Shown: piece after piece, positions 1-51,855 of the stretch | Layout: every line of letters starts with the position of its first letter | Position numbering within the stretch: the first letter of the stretch is position 1 | Virus record (IMG/VR): IMGVR_UViG_3300032038_007781 | Span: 1 to 64,000 of that record | Reading direction: 5' to 3' (one strand) | Source: a virus | Lineage: Duplodnaviria; Caudoviricetes | DNA length: 64,000 nt | Made by a program: the position numbers and the translations under genes | The notes under the pieces: generated by a model | Told to the model about the DNA's origin: nothing | What the model saw: only the letters and a program-made list of their open reading frames with translations | The model's database searches: none

Positions 1-112
1 TCATTGCGGAATCCGCAGTTCTCCAATCAAGTTCTGTGAGAACTTGGTTTACAGACTCCTTCACAATCTTGCTGAGTGTGGATTCTGTTAATCTAATTCT
101 ATTCTTATTCAT
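1..112 (-). CDS. Partial gene (5' end) with the shared LTE leader; putative capsid-packaged protein
   Basis: Not in the ORF track. Hand translation from ATG at 112: MNKNRIRLTESTLSKIVKESVNQVLTELDWRTADSAM..., running off the window edge. TATTTAT lies upstream at 133-139. Confidence 0.8.
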   Translation of the reverse strand, partial: MNKNRIRLTESTLSKIVKESVNQVLTELDWRTADSAM

Positions 113-149
113 ATTATATACGTATTTTTCTAATAAATATCATCAAGAT

Positions 150-181
150 TTTGTTTTTCTCAGAAGATATCCATATATTTA
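150..181 (+). promoter_or_regulatory. Bacteroidota-type promoter (TTTG-N20-TATATTTA)
   Basis: TTTG at 150-153 and a near-consensus -7 box at 174-181, upstream of the ORF at 206. Confidence 0.5.
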
Positions 182-205
182 TTGTTGAATTAAAGTTTAT
201 AGGAT

Positions 206-2167
206 ATGAAATACTTAAAAGAAGACGGTAGCTTAGACATCAAGCGTATCAACCAACTACCTATTGAAGAATATATGACTGTGGATGTAAAGTTTGGGAG
301 TGGAATGGATAAAACAAAAATTTTTATTGATAAAGCTAAAAAGGTTTGGGGTGAAACCACATTTGATTATAAAGATGTTGTTTATGTTAAGAATAACATA
401 CCTGTTGTTCTATGGTATAATGGAATTAGGGTTGAGCAAACACCAAAACATCACTTAGCACACCATATGCCAATAGAACTTTCAGACAAAAAGAAGCACA
501 CTAACAATGAACTGATTAAAAAGTTCAATGAAGTGCATAATTCAAAATATTCTTATGGCGATTTTAAGTATGTAGATGCTAAAACTAAAAATATTCCTGT
601 TTATTGTAAATGCTTAGGGGCAGATGGTAAAGAACACGGATGGTGGAATGTTAGTGCAACTAATCACCTTTCAGGATGTGGATGTCCTAAATGCAAAAGT
701 GAAAAACTATCAAAGTATTTTGCTTCAAACACTGAAGATTTCATAGCTAAAGCTAAATTAGTTCATAATGGAAAATATACTTATGATAAAGTAAAATACA
801 TAAATAACACAACAAATGTTATAATAACTTGTAGTAAGCACGGAGATTTCTCACAAACACCGCATAATCATTTGCAAGGTAAAGGATGTCCTAAATGTAA
901 TGAAAATAATCTCGAAAAAATAGTGGAATCTATTCTTGTAGATAACTCAATTAAATACATTCCACAATATAGGGAAAAGTGGCTTGGAAAACAATCATTG
1001 GATTTTTATTTACCTGATTATAACGTAGCAATAGAATGTCAAGGTGAACAGCATTACAAGCCAAACAGATTTTCTGAATCATTGGAAACAATTCAAAATA
1101 GAGATAAAATTAAGTTTGAAAAATGTATCAAAAATGGCGTTAAATTACTTTATTTTGCAAATGAAAAATATGACAAAGAAATCATAAACAATTCAAATGA
1201 ATTGATTAAATCAATTGATGAAAATATAAATATAGACAAAAAAAATATTTCAGAAATACACAATTTCCTTAAATCATTAAACGTTAAATTCACTTATGAA
1301 GTTAATAAGATAGTACATGATTCATCTTATATGTCTTTACAAGATATTTTTACTATTAACGATAGCAATTTAAAAATAATATACGTTAACAGTTATGATT
1401 ATAGAAAGAAAAATGAAGAAGGGGTTGGTGTATCACCATCTTTTTTTATTTCAGAGACTAAAAAATATAATAGCGATGGATATAATGTCATTTGGATTAA
1501 AGATTATGAAATGATTGAAGAAAAAAATGGCTATAAACGTAAATGGGAAGTCATTAAATCATATATCAGATATGCTTGTAATCTATGCGAAAACAAAATA
1601 TTTGCAAGAAATTGTGAAATACACGAAGTACCAAACAATGAATTGAAAGCATTCTTGGATAAGAATTGCTTCTATGGATATAGACCTGCTAAAGTAAATC
1701 TTGGGCTTTATTTGAAAAAAGATTGTGGTGACTTTAAAAAAGGCGATTTAGTTATGGTATACACTTTTGGAAATAATTTCTATGGTAGGTCTGATAAGTT
1801 AGATACATTGGAAGTTATAAGGGTATCTACAATTCTAAATTCACATGTAGTTGGCGGTTCATCGAAGTTACTTAATTTTTTTGAAAAAAATTATAAGCAA
1901 GTTAAAATAGCTAATAAAACTATAAATGTTAAAAAATTAATATTCTATGTGGACGCTGACCATAATAACGGAAAAAGCTTACAGAATAGTGGATTTGAAT
2001 TTACGAAATGGGTTCCTGGGTTTATGAATGTCAACTCTATTAAAAGGACTGCGACAATGAGAAAACCATTTAAAAATGATGAAATAAACAAATTAATCAA
2101 TTCTAATCAAATGTACATTTCCCCTACAAATGGCGTTATGGTATTTAACAAGATTTTAGAACGTTAA
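206..2167 (+). CDS. Free-standing homing endonuclease-like protein (DUF723-like Zn repeats, Vsr/PD-(D/E)xK-like nuclease, Hef-like C-terminal region)
   Basis: Repeats KYxY...C..HG...HL.G.GCPKC; LDFYLPDYNVAIECQGEQHY nuclease motif; C-terminal IFARNC/FLDKNCFYG/GGSSKLL/YVDAD motifs. Confidence 0.75.
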   Translation: MKYLKEDGSLDIKRINQLPIEEYMTVDVKFGSGMDKTKIFIDKAKKVWGETTFDYKDVVYVKNNIPVVLWYNGIRVEQTPKHHLAHHMPIELSDKKKHTNNELIKKFNEVHNSKYSYGDFKYVDAKTKNIPVYCKCLGADGKEHGWWNVSATNHLSGCGCPKCKSEKLSKYFASNTEDFIAKAKLVHNGKYTYDKVKYINNTTNVIITCSKHGDFSQTPHNHLQGKGCPKCNENNLEKIVESILVDNSIKYIPQYREKWLGKQSLDFYLPDYNVAIECQGEQHYKPNRFSESLETIQNRDKIKFEKCIKNGVKLLYFANEKYDKEIINNSNELIKSIDENINIDKKNISEIHNFLKSLNVKFTYEVNKIVHDSSYMSLQDIFTINDSNLKIIYVNSYDYRKKNEEGVGVSPSFFISETKKYNSDGYNVIWIKDYEMIEEKNGYKRKWEVIKSYIRYACNLCENKIFARNCEIHEVPNNELKAFLDKNCFYGYRPAKVNLGLYLKKDCGDFKKGDLVMVYTFGNNFYGRSDKLDTLEVIRVSTILNSHVVGGSSKLLNFFEKNYKQVKIANKTINVKKLIFYVDADHNNGKSLQNSGFEFTKWVPGFMNVNSIKRTATMRKPFKNDEINKLINSNQMYISPTNGVMVFNKILER

Positions 2168-2224
2168 AAATGTTAATTCTATTGTTTTATTAAAAACAAA
2201 GCGTTATATTCAAAATAAAAAAAT

Positions 2225-2674
2225 ATGAAATTAACGAAAAGCATTATTAAAAGTTATTATTTGGATAATAATAACAATTATTTCAACAATGAATTACCAA
2301 CTAAAAACATAACATTTGCTATTGACCATTCAATACATAATGTAGCTGGTTTTGTAAGGCAAACAAAAAACAAATATAAAATATTTGTTAGTGACATGTT
2401 CTTATGGGATAAAGAAGAATTATCTGATATAATTACGCACGAAATGATTCATTTGAAATTGTCAATGATTGGTAAAAATGATTTTAGTAACCATGGCAAT
2501 AATTTCAAGGCTGAATGTGCAAGAATTTACCAAGAAAGAAAAAGAGTAATTCCTTTAGATGGGAGTCATATTTTAAAAACTCGCAAATGTAAAGAATTAC
2601 TCCTTAAGGAAAAAAATAGAAAACATAACATTTTCCTTATAATGTTAAATTGGCTAATTAATAAGATTTGTTAA
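2225..2674 (+). CDS. SprT-like zinc metalloprotease
   Basis: HEMIH zincin motif followed by NHGNNF. Confidence 0.75.
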   Translation: MKLTKSIIKSYYLDNNNNYFNNELPTKNITFAIDHSIHNVAGFVRQTKNKYKIFVSDMFLWDKEELSDIITHEMIHLKLSMIGKNDFSNHGNNFKAECARIYQERKRVIPLDGSHILKTRKCKELLLKEKNRKHNIFLIMLNWLINKIC

Positions 2675-3075
2675 TTATAGATATTATTAATTGACCTACT
2701 ACGTCTACTATTTGCATTACCCTTCATACTTTGAGCTGACCTTATAACTTGGGAAAGTGTTGCATTTCCACCGTATCTTTTGACTAACGGCATTAAAGTG
2801 TTAATAAGTTCTTGGGCTTTATAATATGAATTAGATGCTTTAAAATTAGTCGCAGCAGCTTTAAATCGCTTATTAAGGTTATATGGAAATTCAGTATCAT
2901 TTGGCGCAGGTCTTCTTCTTTCAGAATTACCAGGACCGTTTCCAAAAAATGCACTTACTGCATTAGCCCCACTTTTAACCATATCTTTAAAACCTTCATT
3001 CTCATCGTTTTCATTGATGACTTGCTGAATGTTTTCTTCAATTACTCTATGTAAATAATTTTCATTTATTACCAT
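2671..3075 (-). CDS. Putative capsid-packaged protein with leader variant
   Basis: N-terminus MVINENYLHRVIEENIQQVINE resembles the shared leader. Confidence 0.6.
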   Translation of the reverse strand: MVINENYLHRVIEENIQQVINENDENEGFKDMVKSGANAVSAFFGNGPGNSERRRPAPNDTEFPYNLNKRFKAAATNFKASNSYYKAQELINTLMPLVKRYGGNATLSQVIRSAQSMKGNANSRRSRSINNIYN

Positions 3076-9148: not shown

Positions 9149-9868
9149 TTATCTTCTTCTGTAAAAATTATTATATATTTCTTCACTTAATCCTGAATCA
9201 AGGATAACCATATGTGCTTCCCCATCACGTTGAACCATTCCCCAATTTGCTAATCTTGTATAATCACCTGTTGGTGGTTGATAGCTTCCGAGATAATTTT
9301 CTAATTCATTTAAGAAATATGAACCATTTTCATCAGCTTCCAATATTTCATCAATATTATTATCATTAATAATAGACCTATCATATCGTGCAATTCCTCG
9401 TTCATATCTACTACCTTGGTACATTATAAAATTGCAAACAAGCTTCCAATCAAAACCTGTGACTTTTTTAAAGTCTTGAGCCTTTGCTGGTAGAACATAT
9501 TCACATACTATCCATTGATATCTTGGTTCTTCATTACCATCATATCCAAACAATTGAGTATGGTCGCCATCAAATTGATATACCTTAGGAAATAGTCCTG
9601 TCTGTTCCTTATACCTGTCACGTGTTATTGAACATTCTTCTTCATTTTGTGCGATTCCTTTTTGATTCTTAGCCAATTTAAGGCATTTTTCGTCATCAAT
9701 TTGGAAGACAATTCTGCTTGAACCATTCCCTATTGGATTTCCAAGCATTTCTTTGCAATACCTGACTTTCTTAGCATAAGGCATTGTATTTAAAGCATCC
9801 AAACGAAACCCTTCCATTTGTGCTTCAAACAACTTTTTATATTGTGATTCAGTGATTATTACTTTCAT
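9149..9868 (-). CDS. Leader-bearing protein kinase-like enzyme
   Basis: Leader MKVIITESQYKKLFE; Gly loop IGNGSSRIVF, CLKLAK, QNEEE, D-x4-N (DYTRLAN) and ILDSG motifs of the kinase-like fold. Confidence 0.7.
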   Translation of the reverse strand: MKVIITESQYKKLFEAQMEGFRLDALNTMPYAKKVRYCKEMLGNPIGNGSSRIVFQIDDEKCLKLAKNQKGIAQNEEECSITRDRYKEQTGLFPKVYQFDGDHTQLFGYDGNEEPRYQWIVCEYVLPAKAQDFKKVTGFDWKLVCNFIMYQGSRYERGIARYDRSIINDNNIDEILEADENGSYFLNELENYLGSYQPPTGDYTRLANWGMVQRDGEAHMVILDSGLSEEIYNNFYRRR

Positions 9869-12904: not shown

Positions 12905-13480
12905 ATGACACAAATGGAAAAGAAACTTATAAAACTAACAGAACAAGACCTTCACAAAATTATTAAAGAAGCGGTTAGGAAAACACTAAATGAAGCATAT
13001 AATTCAGATTTATATCATTTTACAAATTTAGAAGGCATATATTCCATATTGGAAGATAATTGCCTATCTGCAATTGTAACTGGTGATGACGAATATGATG
13101 AAAATGATGTTGCTGTATGTTTGTCAAGAACAAGCAACCCTTATATTGGCTATTCTCCAAATACAAAATACGATATAATTTTCAGAATAACGTTAGATAC
13201 TGAAAAGATGCTATCTTCAATTAGAGGGATGAAAATAAAACCTTGGTCAATGAATAATCCAAGGACAACAACAAGCCATTGGAATGGTAAGAAAAAATAC
13301 ATATCAGTTAGCGATTTTGAAGAAAGGGCATATACAGACATTTTCCCATTAGATAGATACTGCAAGTCAATTGACGCATTTCCATATACAAAGGGGGAAA
13401 TATTCGATGAAGAACAAACAAAGATTTTAGATAAACTTAAAGAAGTTTTTCCACAATGGAATAAGTTTTTTGGCTTTTAA
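12905..13480 (+). CDS. Leader-bearing ADP-ribosyltransferase-like protein
   Basis: Leader KKLIKLTEQDLHKIIKEAVRKTLNE, then LYHFT..SIL, VCLSR, ITLD and FEER, an ART-fold pattern. Confidence 0.55.
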   Translation: MTQMEKKLIKLTEQDLHKIIKEAVRKTLNEAYNSDLYHFTNLEGIYSILEDNCLSAIVTGDDEYDENDVAVCLSRTSNPYIGYSPNTKYDIIFRITLDTEKMLSSIRGMKIKPWSMNNPRTTTSHWNGKKKYISVSDFEERAYTDIFPLDRYCKSIDAFPYTKGEIFDEEQTKILDKLKEVFPQWNKFFGF

Positions 13481-13494: not shown

Positions 13495-13531
13495 AAAAAA
13501 GAGGAACTATTTATTTAGTTCCTCTTTTTTT
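13495..13531. terminator. Bidirectional terminator
   Basis: AAAAAAGAGGAACTA-loop-TAGTTCCTCTTTTTT between convergent genes. Confidence 0.8.
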
Positions 13532-13764
13532 TATCTTATTCTTTTAGCTGTATCTTTAAGACCATTTATGGCTTTCTGCCAATTAAGCAATACAATATCA
13601 CGTTTACTGTGTACACCATCGTTTATTATTTTGTTTAAGTCATCCTGCATTTCATTAGCATATATTTCTATTTTATTAGCTATATTAGGATTTTTAAACG
13701 TATCACCATATTCCATAAGAATTTTTCTTGTCTCTTCTTTTATGATTTTTTTAATTTTATCCAT
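13531..13764 (-). CDS. Small protein with leader variant
   Basis: MDKIKKIIKEETRKILME; TATTTAT upstream at 13833-13839. Confidence 0.6.
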   Translation of the reverse strand: MDKIKKIIKEETRKILMEYGDTFKNPNIANKIEIYANEMQDDLNKIINDGVHSKRDIVLLNWQKAINGLKDTAKRIR

Positions 13765-18513: not shown

Positions 18514-18831
18514 TTAGACTTTGCCATATTTTTCAACTCCTTTATCAAACCCATAACGATACCCAGCTTCATTGTTATACCCTAACTTTGGATTTTCTTG
18601 ATAATTCTTCCAAGCTGTATCGCTTGCCATTCCCATTACTTTATTGTTTTCTGCTTCTGCATTTGCACCCATATTTGTTCTATAGTGTTTTGCAGCCCTT
18701 CTTCCTCTAACAGCATCAAGCGCAAAGTTACCACGAGGTGTATCACCAATCTCATTAAGTACCCTATTCACCGATTCCTTCACAATCCTATGAAGGTCTG
18801 ATTCTGTTAGTCTTATAAGTCTTTTATTCAT
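18514..18831 (-). CDS. Leader-bearing putative capsid-packaged protein
   Basis: Likely start at 18831: MNKRLIRLTESDLHRIVKESVNRVLNE|IGDT... Confidence 0.75.
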   Translation of the reverse strand: MNKRLIRLTESDLHRIVKESVNRVLNEIGDTPRGNFALDAVRGRRAAKHYRTNMGANAEAENNKVMGMASDTAWKNYQENPKLGYNNEAGYRYGFDKGVEKYGKV

Positions 18832-19185: not shown

Positions 19186-19221
19186 CAGCGAGAAGATATT
19201 TATGGTAAATATCGTATCAGA

Positions 19222-19311
19222 ATGAAACAGATAATCAGATTAACAGATAGTGGCATACATAACATAGTAAGACAAGTAATCAAAGAAATAGGCTATCGTG
19301 GTGCTGCTTAA
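19222..19311 (+). pseudogene. Leader-only mini ORF (29 aa)
   Basis: MKQIIRLTDSGIHNIVRQVIKEIGYRGAA*, preceded by TATTTAT at 19197-19203. Confidence 0.6.
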
Positions 19312-19342: not shown

Positions 19343-20125
19343 TTATAAATATATTTCGTCAATGTTGTCATATTCTCCAGAATCAAGTGACGTACTTCCT
19401 TGAATAACTGCTTGGCCATTATCTACTTTAATATTAAATTTTACGTTATGATTTGCATCTCCTTCTGTATCAAATTGAATTTCTTCATTTTTTCCATTTT
19501 TGGTGATGATTAATTTGGGGCTAGAATTATCTAATGAAACATTAGTGATAACATCTCCTGACAACGCAGTAATCCTATTATTTAAATCATCAACACTAAC
19601 TTTAGCATAATTTTTATTCTTAATTATTATACCAATAATCTTTTTGATTGCTTCGTTGACGGTGTCTCCTGATGATGGTGATTCATCGTTCGACTCACCA
19701 TCGTAGTTTTCACCCAAATAGATTGAATCACCACTAATTGTAAAGTTTATTCCATTTTCGCTTGTAACTCCACTAACGCCATTTACCTTCACACTTGAAA
19801 GTGCTTCTTTAATATTTCCAACTTCATTCGCAGTTTCTATTTTAATATTTTCAACCTCGGTCGCAGTCGCTATTTTATGCCAATTATTAATATCAGTAGG
19901 TGGCATATGAATCAACTGATACAAGCCATTTTTAGTTGCATCTTTATCATCAACTACTGAAACTACGATACCGTCATAGAACACATTATCACCTGATGAT
20001 GCTTGAGTTAAGCCACTATATTCAGTAACTACAAGTCTTGCATCAAGTGGGATTGGTTGGTTGACATTGAAACCTAGAGCCAAAGAAACTGCATTCTCGT
20101 TTTTTATATACTTTGATGTTGCCAT
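19343..20125 (-). CDS. Tail fibre-associated virion protein
   Basis: PLDARLV...YDGIVVSV...NGLY N-terminal domain; GDTVNEAIKK; C-terminal LDSGEY. Confidence 0.6.
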   Translation of the reverse strand: MATSKYIKNENAVSLALGFNVNQPIPLDARLVVTEYSGLTQASSGDNVFYDGIVVSVVDDKDATKNGLYQLIHMPPTDINNWHKIATATEVENIKIETANEVGNIKEALSSVKVNGVSGVTSENGINFTISGDSIYLGENYDGESNDESPSSGDTVNEAIKKIIGIIIKNKNYAKVSVDDLNNRITALSGDVITNVSLDNSSPKLIITKNGKNEEIQFDTEGDANHNVKFNIKVDNGQAVIQGSTSLDSGEYDNIDEIYL

Positions 20126-20136
20126 TTATTATCTTT

Positions 20137-21492
20137 TTACATTTTAATGTTAATTTGGAATGCTACACGTGCATTACCTGTACCATCATTACCAATAGAT
20201 TTTGCTTTATGCTTAAGCAAGTAGCATTCATAATCAGTATTGTTAGCATCTTTTAATTTTGAAAGATTTTGGTCCACTTCCCAATTTGCAGTGTCATCAC
20301 CATTAAAAGCATTTGCTCCTGCATTATATTTCATAACCTTAACACTATTCATATTACCATTCCAAATAGCATTAGGGACTGCAATCTTATAGCCACCACC
20401 TTCAACAACTTTACCATTGTCATTTACAGATTCTTTTGTTTTAAAATCAATGGTCATATTTTTTGTGGCTTTTGCATCTAATTTAGCGATAATATCAATA
20501 TTATTATTATTTGCACCAGGCTTATAATATGTTGAAACTGAAGTTGTTGCACTAACACTGCCTGCTGGATGTGGGTTTTCACGTAGTGTGGTTGAAGTTG
20601 CTGCTGTACTTGCAAACGCCTCAATACCTTTGGTATCACCTGAGTTACCCTTCGAATCACATAAAATATCACCTTTCGCATAATTTACTATACCAGTGAA
20701 AGTGTAAGTTCCTAAACCTGATAAAGTCAATGATGAACCAAAATCAGTTGAAGTGCCACCATTAAAACTATATTTAATTGAATTTGAAATTTCATTGCCT
20801 GTATCAGCCGTAGCTGACAAATTTTGTTTTTCCATTTTAACTTGTGCTTGACCTTTTCCATACGTCAAATGAAATGAGTCCGCATTGCTAATTGTAGTAC
20901 CTACCTCAACTTCAGATGAACTGGTTGGTCTTGAAATAGTAGCATAAGGCTCATTTAAGATTGTTGGATAAATTGTCTTAAACAACATTGCATCAATCAG
21001 TCTTGATAATGTATATTTCTTCAATTCAGATGCTTCTGTCCCTGCTTTAATATCACCAATACTTACAGAAACCTTCTCGGTGTCATTAGAAACAGGGGTG
21101 AAGAAAAGTCTGAAGAACTTATCATCATCAGTATTTGCCATATCAACCTTATACGTATCAGTAGTGCCACTATTATAAGTTGCAGCACTAACTAATTCTA
21201 CACCACTTGCATATTTTAAAGTATTCTCAATAAAATTCTTGACTTCTTCGATTTGATTTTCAATATCCTTTACGTCAATTGTGAATAGCTTAGTCTCATC
21301 TCCCTTCTTGACATAAATACCAACAATGTAAGCTATATCTTTTTTGCCATTATCGGTAGTTTTATCATCATAGAATGCGGCCGCCATTATCTCACCATCA
21401 GCATAAGTATTCTCGTACTTCTTTAGATTAGCCAAAGCAGTATCACGATTCTTGAAAATTATATCAAATCTCTTAAGTTGTAATTGTCTCAT
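20137..21492 (-). CDS. Virion/fibre protein, S/T/G-rich and predicted beta-rich
   Basis: 451 aa; MRQLQLKR...DGEI N-terminus; part of a co-oriented late operon. Confidence 0.6.
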   Translation of the reverse strand: MRQLQLKRFDIIFKNRDTALANLKKYENTYADGEIMAAAFYDDKTTDNGKKDIAYIVGIYVKKGDETKLFTIDVKDIENQIEEVKNFIENTLKYASGVELVSAATYNSGTTDTYKVDMANTDDDKFFRLFFTPVSNDTEKVSVSIGDIKAGTEASELKKYTLSRLIDAMLFKTIYPTILNEPYATISRPTSSSEVEVGTTISNADSFHLTYGKGQAQVKMEKQNLSATADTGNEISNSIKYSFNGGTSTDFGSSLTLSGLGTYTFTGIVNYAKGDILCDSKGNSGDTKGIEAFASTAATSTTLRENPHPAGSVSATTSVSTYYKPGANNNNIDIIAKLDAKATKNMTIDFKTKESVNDNGKVVEGGGYKIAVPNAIWNGNMNSVKVMKYNAGANAFNGDDTANWEVDQNLSKLKDANNTDYECYLLKHKAKSIGNDGTGNARVAFQINIKM

Positions 21493-21520
21493 TATATCTA
21501 ATAATTATATTCTCTTATCT

Positions 21521-24190
21521 TTAATAGCCTTTTAGATTATCGTCACCTTCCATCATTCCATAATCAATAGAGCCACCGAAATACAAACCATTAACATTTG
21601 CACCAAGCTCAATTGGTAATCCTTCATATTTTGATTTTGCCTTTACAATTTGAAGTAGGTTATCTTCATATGGAATTTCTGTTCTTGTTAGTCCAGACTC
21701 CTTTTGGCCAGGAACAACTGATAGCCTAACATCAGCCTTAAGTAATGAAACATCAGTATTATCATACTTCTCGGTGAACACATTAACTGAATAAGTTTTA
21801 CTACCTCGCATTAAACTAGCAATTGATTCATTAACATTTGCTACTGCATCTGCAAGTTTCATATCAGCTTCAGCCAATGAAGTTGCACCTGAAATATAAG
21901 GTTTGCCAGAAGGATGATATTTGCCTTCCCTATCTAAACCAGCATAATCCTCAACATTGTCTATTTCTTTTTTAACGTCATCAATTTTACTTAATAAAGA
22001 ATCATCAGTTTCACTTAATGCATTAATGTCCTTTAAGATGCCAGAAGCATCTGCATACAAAGCACCTTTACCTTCTTGTATTGTAGTTTTAAGAATATTT
22101 CCTGATACTTTATCAGCTATCTTAACATCAGCCTTAATCCTATTAACTGAAACACCATTTTCTTCCTTTTGTGTAACTGTAATTTCGATAGGTGTGTTAG
22201 CTGTTTCGTCTGCCTTAGTGTCCTTGATAAGACCTGTAAGATTAACTTTTACATTTTTAGCAGCACCGTCAGTTGTATGATAAGCAATGTTTAATTCGTG
22301 AGTTTCATCACCATAAGTGATGCTATCAATGAATGAAGCAGCATTAAGTTTCTGAGTTAACACTGGCTCATTATTAAGACCATTGATAGTCAATGTGTTA
22401 GTCTGGGCATCATATGATGCGCTTATATCACCTACATATAAACCATCAGCATTAGCTACGATTCTATTATTATTACCTGAAGCGATTTTAACATCAGCAG
22501 CAATTTTCTTATCTGTTACACTAACAGTTGCAGTTTTAGTTGCATCACCAACAAGTGTGATGCTACCAACTTCCTTATCAACATAGGTCTTAATTGCACC
22601 ACTCAAACTAACGTTCTGTGTATCAGTGTATGTTTTAGCACTTTCTATTGCCTTATCAACCTCTTCTTTTGCAATAGCTCTTGCAGAACCACTAACTTCC
22701 TCACCACTTACGTAAAGACCCTTCATTTCCTCATCATAAGCAGTCGTTGTTACCTTCTTAATCAAGTTGTCTGAGTAATTGCCTTCAGTAGCAAGAACAA
22801 CGTCACCTGACAATTCATCAGTACCATTTACTGCGTGTGGAGTCCTGATTAATCTAACACTATGGCCATTATTGTTTGTTTCCCACTCACTCAATATATC
22901 AGTAATAGGAATTTCAAGTTGCTTTGTTTCACTTGAATAAGCATTTGTCTTATAAGCAATAATGATTTTCTCACTTGCTTTGTCGTACCTCGCATACTCA
23001 ATTGATGAAACTGAGTTCAACTGAATCTCCCTACTATGTGTGTCATTATTTGTGTCAGAAATAATAATGACATTTCTTTCAGCATCATAATCAAATGAAG
23101 CATAAAGACCTTTATTGCCATCAACTAAAATAGTGTTCTTATCTTTAGAAGAAACCTTAACGTTAGCAGTAACTGTATGCGATGTGACATCAGTATTCTT
23201 TCTCATTGCTACAGTATCAGTATCTCCAACCTCAAAATATGAAGAAGCGCTCAAACTGTTAAGTTTCTCAACTTCATCAGACAAACTATTGTCTAACCTA
23301 TCAAGAGCGTCTTTAACTTTTTCATTATTGTTGTAATGAATATTATCAGCAGTACCTCTTACATAAAGTTTTCTTCCGTCTTCTATCTTTTCAAGAATGT
23401 TATCATTCTCAGAAGCAATTCTAACATCAGCCTTAAGTACATCCTTCCAATGGTCACTATTTCTATCGTTTATATCAGTGTTCTTATCAGTCTTTCTCTC
23501 CTTTGTTAAAACAATTGGAGTTTCAGACCCATTACCTTCAGTTGTCCACTCATTAATAAGGTCATCAACGTCAACCTCAATTTTTTCGTTATTAGTAAGT
23601 GTGAAAACGATTGCTTCCTTGCTAATGTCATACTCACCACTCTTAATTACAGGAATTGAAAATTCAGTAGTATGCTCATTAACTTGGAACGTAAAAGCAT
23701 TCTTCTCATTATCGAACTTAAGATTTACATAAGAATAAAGACCATTCTCACTTTTCTTGATTATATTATTGATGTTATTATCATTAATAATAACCTTCTC
23801 AGGAACTTTAACATTACCTTTTAAGGTGATACCATCTTCAGTCTGTGTTTTTTCTAATTCCAAAGTATCAGTATCAACTACTGCAAGGGCAAGTTTAGCA
23901 AGAGCATTCTCAATTTCATCATATTTCTCTTGAACATCATCCTTAATGCCTTGAGCATCAATCATAAAATATGATGAATCTTCTGTTGGTTCACTTGAAC
24001 CTGAGCCAGTAGCACCAATTGCAAGAATTATATTCGGCTCTTTCTCATCACCATATCTTAACACAACAGGCTCCGCATATAATGAAGGGCGTACTGATTG
24101 CCTATAGAATAGTTTATTCAAGGATTCAATGGCTTCTTCCCTTGATTTGAACAACTTATTATTATGTACAAATTGTAATCTATTAATCAT
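21521..24190 (-). CDS. Fibre-like virion protein with internal repeats
   Basis: Recurrent ADVKI.....N.L.....GLY(V/A) units; C-terminal IDYG. Confidence 0.65.
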   Translation of the reverse strand: MINRLQFVHNNKLFKSREEAIESLNKLFYRQSVRPSLYAEPVVLRYGDEKEPNIILAIGATGSGSSEPTEDSSYFMIDAQGIKDDVQEKYDEIENALAKLALAVVDTDTLELEKTQTEDGITLKGNVKVPEKVIINDNNINNIIKKSENGLYSYVNLKFDNEKNAFTFQVNEHTTEFSIPVIKSGEYDISKEAIVFTLTNNEKIEVDVDDLINEWTTEGNGSETPIVLTKERKTDKNTDINDRNSDHWKDVLKADVRIASENDNILEKIEDGRKLYVRGTADNIHYNNNEKVKDALDRLDNSLSDEVEKLNSLSASSYFEVGDTDTVAMRKNTDVTSHTVTANVKVSSKDKNTILVDGNKGLYASFDYDAERNVIIISDTNNDTHSREIQLNSVSSIEYARYDKASEKIIIAYKTNAYSSETKQLEIPITDILSEWETNNNGHSVRLIRTPHAVNGTDELSGDVVLATEGNYSDNLIKKVTTTAYDEEMKGLYVSGEEVSGSARAIAKEEVDKAIESAKTYTDTQNVSLSGAIKTYVDKEVGSITLVGDATKTATVSVTDKKIAADVKIASGNNNRIVANADGLYVGDISASYDAQTNTLTINGLNNEPVLTQKLNAASFIDSITYGDETHELNIAYHTTDGAAKNVKVNLTGLIKDTKADETANTPIEITVTQKEENGVSVNRIKADVKIADKVSGNILKTTIQEGKGALYADASGILKDINALSETDDSLLSKIDDVKKEIDNVEDYAGLDREGKYHPSGKPYISGATSLAEADMKLADAVANVNESIASLMRGSKTYSVNVFTEKYDNTDVSLLKADVRLSVVPGQKESGLTRTEIPYEDNLLQIVKAKSKYEGLPIELGANVNGLYFGGSIDYGMMEGDDNLKGY

Positions 24191-24217
24191 TGTCTTAATA
24201 TATCTTTCTATATTATT

Positions 24218-24901
24218 TTATATCTCACCGAAATCTCCATCGAAATTAAGTGTGATATTGTGTTCTTCAATGCCATCATAAGAAGGGATTAGTACGCCAT
24301 GATTAACTGAAACAACATAAGTACCACCTTTATGAATTAAGCCTTCAATCCTATTTTCTTCATTCTTTGCACGTGTTTCTTCTGCTTTAATAGCATCTGA
24401 CAAGCCACTTTCAGATTTTGCTGCTCTATTACTTTCATTATCAAGTGCATCGCTTATGTCAGTAATAGCACCAGATAAAATCTTATCAGTATCAGTTCTA
24501 TCCTTTACTTCAGCCCTAAAATCATTAGTGCGCTCTTCTATAGCATCGCTTATTCTTCTATCAAATGCAATTCTTTCTTGTCTCTCAGTTTCAATTGCAC
24601 CAGATAATCTATCATCAGCACTTTCCCTTTCATTGACTTCATTTTCAAGGTCAGCTGTTAATGTTTCATATAAGTTTGACGACAATCCTTCATATACACA
24701 AGACATATCGACTTGCACCTTCTCGCCATTATTTCTTGTGAGAATTAAGGTGTTCGTTTCACAATCGAATTCAGCACTTTTAATGTCCTCATCCTTAAGA
24801 TTCAAAAAGTTACTATCAATTTCATTAATAGACAATTTGCAATTTTTTGCTACATCTTCTGGATATGGAGACATTAACTTGTAAAAGTAAAGTCCTTTCA
24901 T
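24218..24901 (-). CDS. Coiled-coil fibre-associated protein
   Basis: LSINEIDSNF N-terminal motif; E..R...D..LS.AI repeats; C-terminal DFGEI. Confidence 0.65.
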   Translation of the reverse strand: MKGLYFYKLMSPYPEDVAKNCKLSINEIDSNFLNLKDEDIKSAEFDCETNTLILTRNNGEKVQVDMSCVYEGLSSNLYETLTADLENEVNERESADDRLSGAIETERQERIAFDRRISDAIEERTNDFRAEVKDRTDTDKILSGAITDISDALDNESNRAAKSESGLSDAIKAEETRAKNEENRIEGLIHKGGTYVVSVNHGVLIPSYDGIEEHNITLNFDGDFGEI

Positions 24902-24951
24902 TTTAATTATTTTATTTAGCTTATTTGTTAATAAATAGTAAATAAAACAAT

Positions 24952-24986
24952 AAAAGGGTGAACTCCATTGAAGAAATTCACCCTTT
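24952..24986 (-). terminator. Intrinsic terminator
   Basis: AAAGGGTGAA...TTCACCCTTT. Confidence 0.65.
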
Positions 24987-25051
24987 AATAACCATTTAAT
25001 TTTCTTATTTATAATTAATTTTATCTTAATTTATAATATACAATGCAATTT

Positions 25052-25834
25052 CTATTTTTTATTCTTAATATTGCCTTTAAATTTTAAAACTGCTTCATAA
25101 ACATCACCATTTTCCGAAATAAAACTAAATTTATTACCAATTTTCATTGCTTTTAAATTATTGCTACCATTTGAAGCTCTATTTTCATTTAGTAAAGATT
25201 TATTCAAAGCCTTTGCATATTTTTTTACTGCCGTTTCAACTATATTTTGTATCATATTATAGTCAATTCCATTATTGGTAGTTGTCTCTTGAGTCATTTT
25301 GCGTTCATTAACATAACCATTTGTAGCACCAATTGTATCAAGAACAGGTTTATTTGGGCTTAACGCTTCAGTGTCAATAGGATTACTTTTAAACTGCTCA
25401 AGAATTTCTTTCGGAAGAAAATTACTTGCTTTAGGTGCATCTTCAACAATTCTATTTTGCTGGATAAGCCCAAGGCCACTGTTCATCGTATTCTGAACTT
25501 GATTATTCATACTTTGCTGTAATTTAAGCATTCTTTGCTGAAGCATTTGGTCATACTGTAATCCAGCTGCCCCTATTTCTTCGTTAATTTGACCCTGTTG
25601 CATTTTATTAGTTGAAGTGGCATAACTGTCTTCCATAGAGTCAAAAGCATCGTTAGCAAGCGAATTTGAAGATTTAAGAAAATTGCTTCTTTCTTTTTGC
25701 CTTTCAGCAATTATATGAGCATCATTTTTAGCATCTTCGTGTATTAGTTTTCTTGCTTTACTATTTCTCGCATTTTGTTTTATTCTTGCAAATGCCGAAT
25801 TATCTAATGTTGTAATATTATCTGCCGCTGCCAT
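25052..25834 (-). CDS. Hypothetical late protein (possible head core protein)
   Basis: 260 aa, Q/N-rich, many [ILV]xE sites (IHE, INE, IVE, VNE, LNE). Confidence 0.6.
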   Translation of the reverse strand: MAAADNITTLDNSAFARIKQNARNSKARKLIHEDAKNDAHIIAERQKERSNFLKSSNSLANDAFDSMEDSYATSTNKMQQGQINEEIGAAGLQYDQMLQQRMLKLQQSMNNQVQNTMNSGLGLIQQNRIVEDAPKASNFLPKEILEQFKSNPIDTEALSPNKPVLDTIGATNGYVNERKMTQETTTNNGIDYNMIQNIVETAVKKYAKALNKSLLNENRASNGSNNLKAMKIGNKFSFISENGDVYEAVLKFKGNIKNKK

Positions 25835-26594: not shown

Positions 26595-26609
26595 GTTTTA
26601 TGCTTTAAA

Positions 26610-27023
26610 TTATAGATGTTTTGTTGTTTGGCCAATGAAATATTGTCCGTCTGCCACATTTTCAGCAGTGCTTATTAAACCAGCACTATATTGATTTTCT
26701 TCATTGTATAATTGCGAAGCCATAGCTTTTTTACGGCCGCCAATATCATTTCTACCTTCAATATCATAAAGGCCACCACCATTACTTGTATCAAAGTTAG
26801 AATAATCAATCATATTGGTTGGCTTAGAACAGTCAGGCAACCAAGCAGTATGACCACCATGCCCTGTACCTTTACCAAGTGCGTCACCATCACTTAAAGC
26901 ATCTTTATGTGTTGCACTATATTGGTCTTCAATATTGTAATCTGAACGTACAATTTCATTTTGTCTTTCGGTAATGCCCCTTGTTTCAAGACAAGTCTGT
27001 CCGTTTTCATTAATTGTTGACAT
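26610..27023 (-). CDS. Hypothetical virion protein
   Basis: 137 aa, G/D-rich; TATTTAT at 27058-27064. Confidence 0.65.
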   Translation of the reverse strand: MSTINENGQTCLETRGITERQNEIVRSDYNIEDQYSATHKDALSDGDALGKGTGHGGHTAWLPDCSKPTNMIDYSNFDTSNGGGLYDIEGRNDIGGRKKAMASQLYNEENQYSAGLISTAENVADGQYFIGQTTKHL

Positions 27024-27066
27024 AATTTATATAAATTTTAAATATTTTATTTTAATAATAAATAGT

Positions 27067-28440
27067 TTATGCTTTAATAATTATAGGTTTTTGTAAACCA
27101 AATGATTTATCTTTACCAGTTGTGCTGTCGTAAATTGTGACTGAACCAATTTCTACGTTAGCATTTGGTATGTAAAGTTCTTTTTCTTCATTTAAGTCAT
27201 ACATATTTACGTATAATGTATGATACCAATCAACTTCTGATGGGTCAACCCAACCTTTAAGTGTTACAGTTGTTCCTTGACCGCCACAATAAGGTTCACT
27301 ACTTCCATTTTCCCAAGTCCAATATTCACCTACTGAATCATATTTACCAATAAATGGGTTAGTTTTCTGCCTTTTCATTAACCCGTTAACACTGATAGCT
27401 CTTTCAACATAGATTAGCCCTCTATCATTGTATGTTAAAGAATAAGGAAAACCATATTCACCTAATCTGTGTTTAAAAAATTCATATACATATTCTTCAT
27501 ACGCTTCTTCACCTGTTCTATTTAGGCTATTAAACACGTCATTCACATCAAAGTCTCTAAGATATTCATCTGCACTCATTTCTTCAGGATTAAAGTCATC
27601 AAAGTCTTCCATTGATACGTATTCTTCGCTATACCCATCGTTAAGCATTTCGTATATAAAGTCTTCTTGCCTTAATTCATTATACATTCCTTCCTCGCCT
27701 CCAACTAATTCATCTAAAACATTTGGTAAAATGTCTGCAATCTTATCCTGAACATCACTTACGTCACATTGCGAATGTGGTAATTGTCCATATTTCCCAT
27801 ACTCTTCAAGAAAATCTATATAATGTTCCCAATTTTCTTTATAATCATAATTTTCCGTATCATGATTAAATGGAATATTTAATTGGTCTTTATGTTCTGT
27901 TAATATGATAAGTTTTGATTCAGGTATAATAATTTTTTTCCTTTTTGTTTCATGTAAGTTTACATTAGCGTTACCAACTTTAATAGAACTTGCTGTTTTT
28001 TCTTGTTTAACCTTTGGTGGTTTTGCAAGTTTTTGGACTTGTGGAACATTATTATTATTTTTTACTGCACTTTCTTTAGATTTAACGTCAGTTGCCAAAT
28101 AATTTATAATCTGTTGTTTTGCTTGTGGGTCAACGAAATTCTTTTCTTTTTTTAAATCAATTACCATTTTACGTGCTGCTGATGTTGGGAATTTTACAAG
28201 CCCATCTTTTTTATCTAACTTAGGTTCATTATCATCTTTTGCTGAAATGCCATCTTTTTTTTTCTTCCCTTTATTGTAAGAAGAGTCTAAAAGGCGGTTA
28301 ACTGTTTTATAACCGTCTTGCGTTGTATTATTACCGTATTCACCTTTAACCTTTAAAACAAGATTATGTATATTTTTTGGTATAACAGTAGTTTTTTTAC
28401 TAAGTTTGTCATCTACTGCTTCATCTATAAAAAGAGCCAT
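27067..28440 (-). CDS. Multidomain protein with internal leader and C-terminal ART-like domain
   Basis: Basic N-domain, internal KKIIIPESKLIILTE, acidic middle, then YVERAI / GEYWTW / EEKEL. Confidence 0.5.
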   Translation of the reverse strand: MALFIDEAVDDKLSKKTTVIPKNIHNLVLKVKGEYGNNTTQDGYKTVNRLLDSSYNKGKKKKDGISAKDDNEPKLDKKDGLVKFPTSAARKMVIDLKKEKNFVDPQAKQQIINYLATDVKSKESAVKNNNNVPQVQKLAKPPKVKQEKTASSIKVGNANVNLHETKRKKIIIPESKLIILTEHKDQLNIPFNHDTENYDYKENWEHYIDFLEEYGKYGQLPHSQCDVSDVQDKIADILPNVLDELVGGEEGMYNELRQEDFIYEMLNDGYSEEYVSMEDFDDFNPEEMSADEYLRDFDVNDVFNSLNRTGEEAYEEYVYEFFKHRLGEYGFPYSLTYNDRGLIYVERAISVNGLMKRQKTNPFIGKYDSVGEYWTWENGSSEPYCGGQGTTVTLKGWVDPSEVDWYHTLYVNMYDLNEEKELYIPNANVEIGSVTIYDSTTGKDKSFGLQKPIIIKA

Positions 28441-28441
28441 A

Positions 28442-28699
28442 TTAATAATTTAATGCGTGATTATTATTTGTTGTTCCATTAGCGTACCATTGTTGTGCAG
28501 ATAATTGATTTGCAACATCGTCAGTATCAGGTTGTTTACCAAATTCAACGTTTCCATCTGTATCATGTACTGAAGCTGAATTTGTAACCTTTTCTCCAGA
28601 ATTGTATTCAGTTACATCACCACCATCAAAAGAAGGCGCACTATCGTCCGATTCCAATAGTCTACGGAACTGTGATTCAGTTAATTTAATTACTTTCAT
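28442..28699 (-). CDS. Small leader-bearing protein
   Basis: MKVIKLTESQFRRLLE; TATTTAT at 28720-28726. Confidence 0.7.
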   Translation of the reverse strand: MKVIKLTESQFRRLLESDDSAPSFDGGDVTEYNSGEKVTNSASVHDTDGNVEFGKQPDTDDVANQLSAQQWYANGTTNNNHALNY

Positions 28700-28843
28700 A
28701 CTATGCCTTTTATTATAAAATAAATATTTATTAAATAGTAAATAGACTGTGATAATTAGTGGAATTAATCAAAATATTGAAGACTAATTCACTGAATTAA
28801 ATTGAATAAGTTAAAAAACTAAAATATTAAAAATGATAGTATA

Positions 28844-47975: not shown

Positions 47976-48875
47976 TTATTTTTTAATTAAAAAAGTCCCT
48001 CCATCATCACTTTCCCCAACCTTAATGAAACCATATTTCATAATGGAATTAGCAAAAGTAGTTTCATCAACACCATCTGTTGGGCATACCCTTAAGTAAA
48101 ACTGATAGCCACTGTATTTGTTAAGAATATATTCCAGCAACCTTTTGGATATTCCCATATTTCGAAAACCTTTATTAACAGCAATATCGGCAAGGTCAAT
48201 TACACGCTTATCATTATCAAGTTTCCTAACTACATTATATGCAATATCATGACCGTCTTCAATGCTGTCACTTATGTTGCTATAAATATCATCTGGATAG
48301 CATATATAATAGTTTAAATACCCAGCCTCATTACCATTATAATATGCGCCAACACAAAGGCCACCATATTCATCGCTGCCATCTTCAAATTCAAGACCAC
48401 TGCTCATACTCTCATATATGTTAGAATGAACAGATAAATCATTTGAATCTCCTTCAGACCCTTTATAAACTATTTTAATCGCTGAAATAGGTATAGGAAT
48501 ATCATAAACAAAACATCCTTTCATTGATTTATCTGGGTCTCTGAGTATATGTTTCTTATCTAATTGTGAAACATCAATTCTATAAATATCATCATCGTAA
48601 GTTGAATCATACTCACCATTGTTAATTGTATCATGGTCATATAAGAAAACATAAGGCTTTAAATCTTCTCTGTCATCCCAATGTGCTTTATATGAATCAC
48701 CAACAGAAGGAACTAACCCATTTTTTATAATAGAACGTCTAACAGTAATAGGTGCTTTATGATAAAGAAATCTTGGAAATTTATATTTAAGAGTCTCTTC
48801 CATCACTTGAATAACAGACTCCTTTATGATTGTATGAAGGTCAGATTCTGTTAATTTTATAAGTTTCTTAGGCAT
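47976..48875 (-). CDS. Leader-bearing fusion of an ART-like (KptA/Tpt1-type) domain and a GNAT acetyltransferase
   Basis: Leader KKLIKLTESDLHTIIKESVIQVMEE; LYH...SIIKNGLVP...YVFL...YRID...IPISAI; then IAVNKGFRNMGISKRLL...KYGF. Confidence 0.65.
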   Translation of the reverse strand: MPKKLIKLTESDLHTIIKESVIQVMEETLKYKFPRFLYHKAPITVRRSIIKNGLVPSVGDSYKAHWDDREDLKPYVFLYDHDTINNGEYDSTYDDDIYRIDVSQLDKKHILRDPDKSMKGCFVYDIPIPISAIKIVYKGSEGDSNDLSVHSNIYESMSSGLEFEDGSDEYGGLCVGAYYNGNEAGYLNYYICYPDDIYSNISDSIEDGHDIAYNVVRKLDNDKRVIDLADIAVNKGFRNMGISKRLLEYILNKYSGYQFYLRVCPTDGVDETTFANSIMKYGFIKVGESDDGGTFLIKK

Positions 48876-48930: not shown

Positions 48931-48954
48931 AAACGCAGCCAATTGACTGCGTTT
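48931..48954 (-). terminator. Intrinsic terminator
   Basis: AAACGCAG-loop-CTGCGTTT with a T-tract on the minus strand. Confidence 0.7.
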
Positions 48955-48967
48955 CAATTTTATTTTG

Positions 48968-50005: not shown

Positions 50006-50052
50006 ACTCTTCTAAAATTTGAAGTTATTAATTATTGTTTTGATTAACGACT

Positions 50053-50323
50053 GCAATATATTATTTTGCTTTCATAATTGCAAATCTTTTTTGTTAAAAG
50101 ATATTAAACATTTCGTTAATTAAATAACGTTGTTGCTTTCTTGTTAACAATGGCAATATATTCTTTTATTTCTATTTTTCCAAATAGTTTTAGTTAATGT
50201 TTGTTAAACCTATTTTTTAATTCTAAGAATAACATTTTTATATTTTTTTATTTACCTTATTATTAATTAAATTGAACATTTCATAATTTAAAACAGTTGT
50301 TTGATTTATATGTTGCAAATATA
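50053..50323 (-). promoter_or_regulatory. Tandem Bacteroidota-like promoters
   Basis: TTTG-N20-TATATTGC at 50084-50053 and again at 50184-50153; a third TATATTTG at 50323-50316. Confidence 0.6.
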
Positions 50324-50532
50324 ACGCTGTTTTTCTTAATAACTCTATCAAAGTTCTAAAAAAATGTTAAATAGACAAAATATTTCTACTTTCTTGACAA
50401 ATTCGTATGTTTTTATATCATTTAAATAAGAAATGGACAATATTTATAATTGAAAAAAAAAGGTTAAATTATAATAGTATTATAGTTTTCATACCATTTA
50501 TTTTTTTACTAACAATTTTAATTAAAAATTTT

Positions 50533-51345
50533 ATGGGAAAAAGAAAGCGTTTAGCAAACATTTCAGAAGAAGATTTGGACTTCATCAATGCAAAAATGAA
50601 AGCGCCTGAATTAAGCGATAATTATGAATATGTTGATGGATATAAGAATCAGCTAAAACTTTTAAGTTATAAATTAAACATTAAATGCAAAAATGAAAAG
50701 CAAAAAGAATTTCTAAAATCACTTAAAGATAAAAATAAAGAAATATGCTTTGGGACAGGTTCTGCTGGTACGGGTAAATCATTTATGTCGTTATCTTATG
50801 GGCTTAAGGCAATAAAGGATGGTGAATTTGATAAAATTATAATGGTAGTACCTACAGCACAAGCATCTGGAAAAGACATGGGGTTTGGTTTCCTAAAAGG
50901 TGAACTTGAAGATAAAACAAGACCATTTAAGGATGTGGATAGATATACTATTGAAAAAATCCTTAAAATGAGTGAAAATAATGAAGCAAAATTAATTTCA
51001 AGCCAACTGATTAATAGTGGGGTTATTCAATATGAATTTATTAACTTTATGTTAGGTAAAACATTTGATAATGCACTTATCCTTGTCAATGAAGCAGAAC
51101 AATATACCAAGGAAGACATGAAACTTATCCTTACTCGCATTGGTGAAAAAAGTAAACTTGTCATTACAGGTGATTGTGAACAAGTAAATAGGCAGTCAAT
51201 TGTAAAAGGAAAAGATGAATGTGGGTTATCATATGTGGCTGATAAATTGGATGGTATGGAAGAAGTTGCAGTTACAACATTTTCAAGGGAAGACATTGTT
51301 AGAAACAAATTAATTACTAAGATTCTTGACAGATTAGATTCTTAA
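50533..51345 (+). CDS. phoH: PhoH-family ATPase
   Basis: GSAGTGKS, GFLKG, GKTF, NEAEQ, LTRIG, TGD..Q, DIVRN; likely start MGKRKR. Confidence 0.93.
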   Translation: MGKRKRLANISEEDLDFINAKMKAPELSDNYEYVDGYKNQLKLLSYKLNIKCKNEKQKEFLKSLKDKNKEICFGTGSAGTGKSFMSLSYGLKAIKDGEFDKIIMVVPTAQASGKDMGFGFLKGELEDKTRPFKDVDRYTIEKILKMSENNEAKLISSQLINSGVIQYEFINFMLGKTFDNALILVNEAEQYTKEDMKLILTRIGEKSKLVITGDCEQVNRQSIVKGKDECGLSYVADKLDGMEEVAVTTFSREDIVRNKLITKILDRLDS

Positions 51346-51356
51346 TACTATTATAA

Positions 51357-51394
51357 AATAAAAGGTAGATAAGTTAACTTATCTACCTTTTATT
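51357..51394. terminator. Perfect 38 bp palindrome, bidirectional terminator
   Basis: AATAAAAGGTAGATAAGTT|AACTTATCTACCTTTTATT between convergent genes. Confidence 0.8.
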
Positions 51395-51426
51395 ATTTTC
51401 ACTATTATATAATTATTGACTACAGT

Positions 51427-51855
51427 TTATTCACCAATCCACCAATCTGTTACATCTTCCATAGACTCACCCATACCTTCAATGCAGTCTCGAAGACTTT
51501 CTCCATTGTTTGGGTATACATTCGATGCATATGGCGCTCCTGTGAAATGTACGCTAATTGGGGCATCAGGAAGTGGGTCATCAATGGTATATGTTTCTCC
51601 TTGATATGATGCTGTTGGGAATTCATTATTTCTTAATTGATGAACTCGTTCCATTCTATCCAAATCTTGGTATTTATCCCATAAATCGTCACTTTCGTCA
51701 CCACCGTATTTTGAGTTTCTCCATTTGTGAGTTATTTCATCAGCATAATCTTCTAACGGTCTGTTTCTCCTTGCTTCTTTTATTACTCTTTTTACCGATT
51801 TCTCCACAATCCTGTGAAGGTCTCCTTCTGTTAATCTTATAAGTTTTTTAGTCAT
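51427..51855 (-). CDS. Leader-bearing putative capsid-packaged protein
   Basis: MTKKLIRLTEGDLHRIVEKSVKRVIKE; TATTTAT at 51876-51882. Confidence 0.75.
   Translation of the reverse strand: MTKKLIRLTEGDLHRIVEKSVKRVIKEARRNRPLEDYADEITHKWRNSKYGGDESDDLWDKYQDLDRMERVHQLRNNEFPTASYQGETYTIDDPLPDAPISVHFTGAPYASNVYPNNGESLRDCIEGMGESMEDVTDWWIGE

Follow-up and report, generated by a model that had tools for sequence, protein, structure and literature searches.

A conserved 27-residue leader on unrelated proteins of uncultured gut jumbo phages resembles the T4 capsid-targeting sequence in format

A portable capsid-targeting sequence (CTS) has already been established for the T-even phages (PMC9026906, PMC12373910; here and below, both papers are cited from the portions available to us). 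The CTS has been described as a route by which T4-like phages place varied proteins in the capsid; the T4 propeptides target the internal proteins to the core, and residues 8 and 10 govern their processing (PMC9026906). The T4 internal proteins co-purify with gp22 and are basic, and Alt is a packaged ADP-ribosyltransferase (ART) (PMC9026906). Ip1, Ip2 and Ip3 are inhibitors of GmrSD enzymes, each with a target of its own (PMC12373910). IPII and IPIII of T4 start with a 10-residue peptide that ends with I-A-E and is followed by Ala, while Alt starts with a peptide of 6 residues. Here we describe a 27-residue leader that is present at the N-termini of otherwise unrelated proteins encoded by the IMG/VR virus record IMGVR_UViG_3300032038_007781. 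The analysis was centred on the first 64 kb of this 126,040-bp record, hereafter referred to as the window.

Compared with the T4 CTS, the leader shows a similar general arrangement. An N-terminal tag is the sole common part of otherwise unrelated proteins in both systems (for T4, PMC12373910). Leader residues 1-10 match the IPII/IPIII peptide in length and in the layout of a hydrophobic residue 8 and Glu10, a gp21-family protease is encoded here as well, and a cargo with a predicted ART fold is found here, as the ART Alt is in T4. The differences are considerable, however. There is no detectable sequence homology, and the layout alone is alike. The leader is 27 residues long, compared to 6-19 residues in T4, and includes a second, helical half with a second (L/I)-x-E. 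Its conservation is far stronger. It is present in 8-30 copies per genome; T4 has three, and "at least 10" types are known from its relatives (PMC12373910). Some copies of the leader are internal to proteins or part of tandem modules, most cargos are acidic whereas those of T4 are basic, and the leader system is known from sequence alone. What is new here is a tag that is unlike the T4 one and much longer, that is extremely conserved and present in many copies, that serves as a delimiter inside multi-module proteins and has a short alternative form, and that makes up a large family among uncultured gut jumbo phages. On balance we lean, if only somewhat, towards reading the leader of this uncultured phage as a prohead-targeting propeptide that would work like the T4 CTS.

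Jumbo phages of the SPN3US/phiKZ type provide a second comparison. Their heads, too, contain many internal proteins, some of which are cut by a gp21-like protease at N-terminal propeptides. The propeptides there are long and family-specific, not one portable tag, and, unlike those phages, the group studied here has a portal and a capsid protein of T4 type. The cleavage motif of the SPN3US/phiKZ type has a small residue at P3. Encapsulin cargo-loading peptides are also short and portable, and load diverse cargo into an HK97-fold shell; they are usually C-terminal, remain uncleaved and bind the shell protein. With encapsulins the resemblance is an analogy only, without sequence relation. For SPN3US, 55 head proteins have been reported, with 21 in "paralog B" and 9 processed (available portion of PMC10052503).

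A hidden Markov model (HMM) built from five window leaders was scanned over the 2,112 stop-to-stop segments of the record. Nine open reading frames (ORFs) matched with E values of 2.7e-20 to 6.3e-10. Five of them are inside the window (2-112(-), 12905-13480(+), 18514-18831(-), 47976-48875(-) and 51427-51855(-)) and four are outside it (74863-75183, 75733-76239, 100543-101490 and 114484-114834). An independent HMM made from 109 leaders, all from other phages, found the identical nine ORFs (E 1e-18 to 8e-11) and added a tenth, 19222-19311, a counterpart of which, 39 amino acids (aa) long, is present in locus L017. The same segments were also ranked with an HMM of the short leaders that are carried by orthologues of the 12905-13480 cargo in other phages. 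The motif was seen by six-frame scan and translation at the positions where the initial annotation had placed it. The leader had been ascribed to at least ten window ORFs; six with the full 27-residue motif, two with a short form of 15-16 residues and one with a partial copy were retained (Table 1). Two proposed copies were rejected: that in 13531-13764(-) (E 0.43) was missing from the results of the short-leader and independent HMMs, and an internal one near residue 175 of 27067-28440(-) scored E 4 with the short-leader HMM and was unseen with both others. Extension of the scan to the whole record and its relatives, with a catalogue of the cargos, yielded the four strong copies beyond the window and many more in relatives. 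A 71-aa ORF beyond the window (record 100269-100484) has a leader-like motif that is located in the second half of the ORF rather than at its beginning (E 8.2e-4, independent HMM).

All nine strong leaders share K3, I6, L8, E10, L13, I16, V21 and E27. Over 118 aligned leaders, information content is 1.8-4.3 bits through residue 27. It drops from 3.78 bits at Glu27 (Glu in 109 of the 118) to 0.84 at residue 28 and stays below 0.9 thereafter, so that the sharp end of similarity after the last Glu, seen at the outset in the window, holds for the larger set. Where two leaders have the same residue, the codons differ in 293 of the 581 pairs compared, and the leader serine is coded by TCN as well as by AGT. 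Selection on the leader therefore acts at the level of the peptide, not of DNA. A DNA-level repeat or an RNA element was rejected on the same grounds, half of the conserved residues being encoded by differing codons.

The leader contains two sites of the (L/I)-x-E form, which fit a gp21-type protease as far as their residues go. At the distal one (residues 25-27), P3 is Leu, Ile, Val or Met in 117 of 118 leaders and P1 is Glu in 109. At the proximal one (residues 8-10), Leu8 occupies P3 in 117 of 118 leaders and is followed by Glu10, with Ser at P1' in 84.

The presumed protease is encoded in the same genomes. A gp21-family prohead protease is present in this record at 73774-74469 (PF03420, 77.4 bits), and PF03420 scores above cut-off in all five related jumbo records; a T4-type portal and a gp21-family protease are encoded in all six genomes examined. 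The capsid protein has a conserved I-Y-E followed by Ala near residue 60 in each of the five genomes read, placed like the L-T-E/Ala of T4 gp23, the site at which gp23 is cut. The order of the T4 genes is 20-67-68-21-22-23. In this phage group, small leader ORFs occupy the portal-protease interval, which in T4 contains genes 67 and 68. This record has two strong leader ORFs and a weak one there; the corresponding numbers are three of 13 for genome G001, four of eight for G004 and one of ten for G005, and a short-form leader ORF is at the same place in G002. In G003, the portal and protease genes are 30 kb apart. Binomial P values for the enrichment are 1.5e-5 (G004), 2.8e-4 (G001) and 0.028 (this record), without significance in G005; tandem duplication could inflate these figures.

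The leader ORFs of this interval thus resemble genes 67 and 68 of T4 in being small and in lying between portal and protease genes. One of them, 74863-75183, encodes an N-terminal helix followed by an acidic tail, as in T4 gp67. On the other hand, none of the head-module leader ORFs matches Pfam GP67 (PF17634), which T4 gp67 itself matches at 1.8e-48, or any other family, and the leader family reaches far beyond the head module. A 74-aa ORF in the portal-protease interval of a Flavobacterium phage (L084:11510-11731) has a starting helix that ends with V-L-E-E and is faintly like the second half of the leader, without significance with the HMM.

The proteins behind the leader were analyzed next to one another as a set. 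The 78 loci collected from IMG/VR contain 128 leader ORFs, of which 113 are unique; their median length is 125 aa. Together with this record they provide 115 cargos, which form 75 clusters in blastp, including 62 singletons; the cargos are, as initially noted, unrelated behind their common leader. In the Pfam scan, 101 leader proteins were used (97 of the 113 unique ones, without near-duplicates and very short proteins, and four from this record), and just one, with a domain of unknown function (DUF), reached the cut-off. The picture of a set of enzymes drawn by the initial annotation was therefore overstated: enzymes are a minority among the cargos, and most cargos are acidic proteins of about 100 aa of unknown family. 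No Pfam or PHROG match was obtained for the 18514-18831 protein. The 9149-9868 protein, previously described as kinase-like, has no Pfam match, and its only match in PDB, SteC, is not significant (E 0.4); its cargo matches phrog_4301, a family of unknown function (E 7.4e-13).

Two of the cargos are recognizable by fold. The 12905-13480 cargo is predicted to have an ART fold. Its AF2 (AlphaFold2) model, with a predicted local distance difference test score (pLDDT) of only 72, matches Tpt1 (7yw4_A) in VIA-align with Z 9.1 over 111 aligned residues (root-mean-square deviation 3.2) and DarT with Z 7.1-7.7, and almost all of the 50 fold matches listed are ARTs. The Foldseek match is weak (best E 4.9e-3), as are the sequence matches (Pfam Tox-ART-HYD1, 19 bits with a cut-off of 25; DarT, E 0.36). 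His38, Ser74-Arg75 and Glu139-Glu140 are invariant in 16 orthologues, a pattern that would be compatible with an ART triad. The GNAT cargo of 47976-48875 was borne out by PF00583 (27.1 bits, cut-off 20.7) and by a fold match with Z 12.1 to NAA60 (6tgx_A; Foldseek E 4e-6, model pLDDT 78.7). There is also a hint, from sequence similarity, that domain A of this protein (residues ~31-145) may be ART-like: hhalign of 12905-13480 with 47976-48875 aligned the leader and the LYH motif only, over 55 columns. GNAT matches fill both fold lists for the whole protein. Three ART-like domains had been proposed initially; one is supported by fold and one by this hint, and no third was found.

The composition of the cargos bears on another explanation, according to which the leader does target the prohead, but the proteins are expendable core, scaffold or filler components, like T4 gp67, gp68 and gp22, that are degraded or expelled at maturation; there would therefore be no injected arsenal. 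The cargos are indeed short, with a median of 99 aa; most are acidic, their content of hydrophobic residues is low and they evolve fast. The near absence of Pfam matches points the same way. Extreme acidity is also a property of the phage's own scaffold, the leader ORFs with the most conserved position occupy the place of genes 67 and 68, and the protein of 74863-75183 is gp67-like. Folded enzymes such as those with the ART fold and GNAT would, however, be needless in a filler. Cargo orthologues are kept at 50-90% identity over many contigs, which argues for specific functions, and 8-30 different fillers per genome seem excessive. We consider this explanation unlikely.

The initial annotation had noted TATTTAT before most copies, and this sequence was found no more than 60 nt upstream in six of the ten ORFs that it listed. 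A longer motif, ATATTTAT, precedes seven leader genes of this record as well as its sheath, portal, protease and scaffold genes, at a distance of 23-50 nt. It was not found before the DNA polymerase, helicase and large terminase (TerL) genes of the record. Its spacing to virion and leader genes in the record and relatives is fixed, mostly at 24-33 or 39-44 nt. In relatives, ATATTTAT precedes 58 of 107 leader ORFs compared to 103 of 443 other ORFs (odds ratio 3.9, p 1.4e-9), and it is found before four of four scaffold, four of four portal and three of four protease genes, as well as before capsid and sheath genes. It is probably a late promoter of the virion gene class in this phage group. Contigs from RNA libraries of three studies cover the leader genes 47976-48875 and 51427-51855; since such libraries can contain DNA, this is only a weak hint of transcription. 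The same contigs leave the PhoH gene (~50229-51050) uncovered, and gaps in contig cover prove nothing.

An upstream motif common to leader and virion genes, together with an N-terminal tag that is followed by variable C-terminal parts, would also be expected if the leader were an uncleaved anchor of small variable domains on the exterior of the particle (on the neck, on the tail or as capsid decoration), comparable to the conserved N-terminal regions by which receptor-binding proteins are anchored. The cargos, however, are mostly small and acidic and lack recognizable binding folds, ART and GNAT enzymes make little sense on the particle surface, and both the (L/I)-x-E ends and the gp67/gp68-like position indicate the head interior. 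An external location is, in our opinion, very improbable.

Table 1. Leader ORFs of the window and associated upstream motifs
Feature	Position	Strand	Particulars
Leader ORF truncated by record start	2..112	-	leader 32-112 (27 aa), 10 cargo residues; E 7.4e-19, independent HMM 3.3e-12
ORF with partial leader, 134 aa	2671..3075	-	second half of motif only, 3010-3075; E 1.3e-3, independent HMM 0.067 (weak); TATTTAT not present upstream
Short-leader ORF, 239 aa	9149..9868	-	leader 9824-9868, 15 aa ending L-F-E; short-leader HMM E 1.2e-3, rank 2 of 2,112
Leader and predicted ART-fold domain, Tpt1/DarT type	12905..13480	+	leader 12914-12994, E 9e-18
Leader protein, 105 aa, cargo without known family	18514..18831	-	leader 18751-18831, E 2.7e-20
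Near-bare leader ORF, 29 aa	19222..19311	+	E 3.5e-8 (independent HMM)
Short-leader ORF, 85 aa	28442..28699	-	leader 28652-28699; short-leader HMM E 5.8e-4, rank 1 of 2,112
Leader, domain A and GNAT	47976..48875	-	leader 48795-48875, E 3.4e-18; domain A ~31-145, begins LYHK; GNAT 157-299
Leader protein, 142 aa, cargo without known family	51427..51855	-	leader 51775-51855, E 5.6e-18
ATATTTAT promoter-like motif	133..140	-	28 nt upstream of start at 112
ATATTTAT	19196-19203	+	26 nt upstream of 19222-19311
ATATTTAT	28720-28727	-	28 nt upstream of 28442-28699
ATATTTAT	51876-51883	-	upstream of 51427-51855

Comparison of related loci supports the idea of a portable tag, with modules swapped across relatives. 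Orthologues of the 12905-13480 cargo in other phages carry either a 27-residue or a 16-residue leader with the same end point. Relatives of 47976-48875 combine the leader with GNAT, a leader-like motif with domain A, or another domain with a leader-like motif and domain A. One cargo, alone behind the leader in locus L015, is found in L005 and L076 as the second module of longer ORFs. In the locus DNA (translated with table 11, without stops), five ORFs contain more than one leader motif. Among 149 of the best-matching database proteins, an N-terminal copy is present in 121 and more than one copy in 92; the 127 internal copies in these proteins comprise 63 that begin with Met and 64 that do not. 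The Met-starting ones may be due to upstream ORF extensions or to fused gene calls.

Leader-like motifs are also found further in within proteins that have a weak DUF5856 N-terminal domain (L089:1820-3616, L090:1218-2957, L093:6723-7445 and L040:5095-6084), and one DUF5856-like protein sits in the G005 head module. A correspondence of such proteins to T4 gp68 was tested, and none was found.

Residues 11-27 of the leader are strongly amphipathic (moment 0.59, reached by 29 of 2,000 shuffles) and in both the 12905-13480 and 47976-48875 models form a helix that runs on into the cargo domain. These properties, the occurrence of the motif within proteins and between domains, a conservation far above that of usual cleavage sites, and the presence in the record of a gene for a ClpB-like AAA+ protein could be explained if the leader were a docking or oligomerization helix that would stay on the protein, with a structural role for its terminal Glu; its partner, not part of the head, could be a chaperone or AAA+ protein of the phage, a host hub or, by self-association, the leader itself. 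Yet the leader belongs to no Pfam, PHROG or natural PDB family, designed helical repeats being the only matches, and such a role would leave unexplained the enrichment between portal and protease genes, the promoter-like motif shared with virion genes and the exact end of conservation at (L/I)-x-E. We regard it as distinctly unlikely.

Searches of databases revealed a large family. The nine-leader profile, compared with 1.84 billion representative proteins, matched 6,139 of them at E<=0.001 and 1,284 at E<=1e-10. One of the 150 best matches (P0079), a repetitive protein of 4,271 aa with 16 partial matches, is most likely unrelated. From IMG/VR came 111 confirmed stretches, and the 78 loci that were retained are in many cases on records 280-412 kb long; five related phage records of this size have 13, 18, 30, 8 and 10 leader matches at E<=0.01. 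No Pfam or PHROG family matches the leader, and a PDB profile search returned designed helical repeats and no natural family. With tblastn against 50,697 deposited phage records, the best E value was 0.6 for a leader protein and 3 for the leader alone. ESM Atlas gave scores of 0.80 or lower, with the RMF family on 41% of the members of one cluster, which we regard as a lead only. The motif strings were not found in the literature searched. The literature on capsid targeting and on rumen jumbo phages, supplements aside, contained T4 and giant-phage background only, and the available portion of a paper on gut jumbo phages (PMC11662467) mentions neither such a motif nor ADP-ribosyltransferases.

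Several observations weigh against a prohead-targeting propeptide. The leader HMM has no significant match among T4 head proteins or elsewhere in the T4 genome, and none in the Flavobacterium phage that is the nearest cultured relative by portal; judged by sequence, the leader resembles the T4 tag in format and not through common descent. Related loci were fetched with a pattern derived from leader residues 3-12, with residues 13-27 outside it, and the conservation of residues 3-12 is therefore partly a selection effect. Conservation over 27 residues exceeds what a cleavage site needs and could reflect binding to some other conserved partner. A bulky residue is common at P1' of the Glu27 site, with Ile in 28 of 118 leaders, whereas the T4 sites compared have Ala or Ser. 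Internal copies, common in database proteins, are not a feature of the T4 tag. Most leader copies are outside the head module; those of 12905-13480 and 18514-18831, for example, flank DNA polymerase genes. The upstream motif is missing at 12914, 18831 and 76239 of the record and before 49 of 107 leader ORFs of relatives. Finally, 79 of 115 cargos are net acidic, whereas the internal proteins of T4 are basic.

If the leader is nonetheless such a propeptide, its two halves may be understood as follows. Residues 1-10, M-x-K-K-L-I-R-L-T-E, followed by Ser, would have the length and the L8-x-E10 layout of the IPII/IPIII decapeptide, and residues 11-27 would form an amphipathic helix that ends with [L/I]-x-E. 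That leader proteins are expressed late, dock, are cleaved, stay in the head and are ejected is in each case our inference. Leader genes would be transcribed together with head and tail genes from ATATTTAT promoters. During prohead assembly, the leader helix would dock the protein onto the acidic scaffold core. The gp21-family protease would then cut after Glu10 and/or Glu27, with the cargo set free inside the head, and cargo retained there would exit with the DNA. For the ART-fold and GNAT cargos, this last step would amount to delivery into the host, as is the case with T4 Alt. Such a tag would be self-contained, and cargos could therefore be swapped, fused in series or lost.

The source of the record is an uncultured jumbo myovirus with T4-like head genes, and its host is probably a member of the Bacteroidota in the rumen. 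This assignment is made because of the T4-type head genes, the 339-kb and 393-kb contigs on which orthologues of 51427-51855 are found, the presence of parts of the sequence in runs labelled bovine gut metagenome from several studies, and a relative of one leader protein on a contig binned into a genome labelled Bacteroidaceae. The record is rated by CheckV as 36% complete, and the G+C content of the window is about 30%. The window contains genes for tail sheath, DNA polymerase, helicase, dUTPase, a PhoH-like protein and glycosyltransferases. The T4-type head module is in the remainder of the record, where a gp23-like capsid protein (PF07068, E 1.5e-73), a scaffold-like protein (540 aa), a T4-type portal (PF07230, E 4.5e-88) and TerL are encoded. 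Among deposited phages, the portal protein is closest to those of a Microcystis phage (37% identity) and of Flavobacterium phages (35%).

Other genes of the record are recorded here in their own right. A phage-borne TonB-dependent receptor with a signal-peptide-like start is encoded beyond the window (record 117763-121587), next to a NadR-like nicotinamide mononucleotide adenylyltransferase and a PnuC transporter; gut jumbo phages that carry genes of NAD+ (nicotinamide adenine dinucleotide) synthesis have been published (available portion of PMC11662467). The double AAA+ protein, ClpB/ClpA-like and 839 aa long, is encoded at record 95136-97655, also beyond the window. Six ORFs resemble homing endonucleases of the HNH/treble-clef kind (phrog_559, DUF723, DUF4379): one at 206-2167 of the window and five beyond it, at record 68213-69724, 77257-78240, 80421-81539, 83459-84403 (judged from its N-terminus alone) and 108578-109720. 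Three of the six are placed among the head genes for capsid, portal and terminase. Inside the window, a 954-aa ORF with YadA-head repeats (51898-54762) and a 2,774-aa ORF (55973-64000, continuing to 64297) probably encode fibre or surface proteins. A minus-strand block of large ORFs without known function (19343-28440), which opens with 28442-28699 as its first gene, includes a WYL-domain ORF at 25818-26594 (PF13280, 2.1e-6).

Taken further, and only as a tentative possibility, a whole clade of cattle-gut jumbo phages may load up to about 30 different proteins per virion by means of the leader as an "address plus cut-here" cassette, a DarT/Tpt1-like ADP-ribosyltransferase and a GNAT protein among them. 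Cargos strung together as polyproteins would be resolved in the head by the prohead protease, and the 6,139 metagenome clusters would be an unexplored pool of phage-injected host-takeover and anti-defence proteins. There is a precedent in T4, where head-packaged proteins can be specific inhibitors of host defence (Ip1-Ip3, PMC12373910). Current gene annotation misses the leader motif wholly, as it has no Pfam or PHROG family. If the leader is what we propose, a simple profile would list the head-carried proteins of many uncultured gut jumbo phages from their genomes, and the tag could be used as a packaging handle for engineering. The finding bears on the question of what giant phages inject into their hosts besides DNA.

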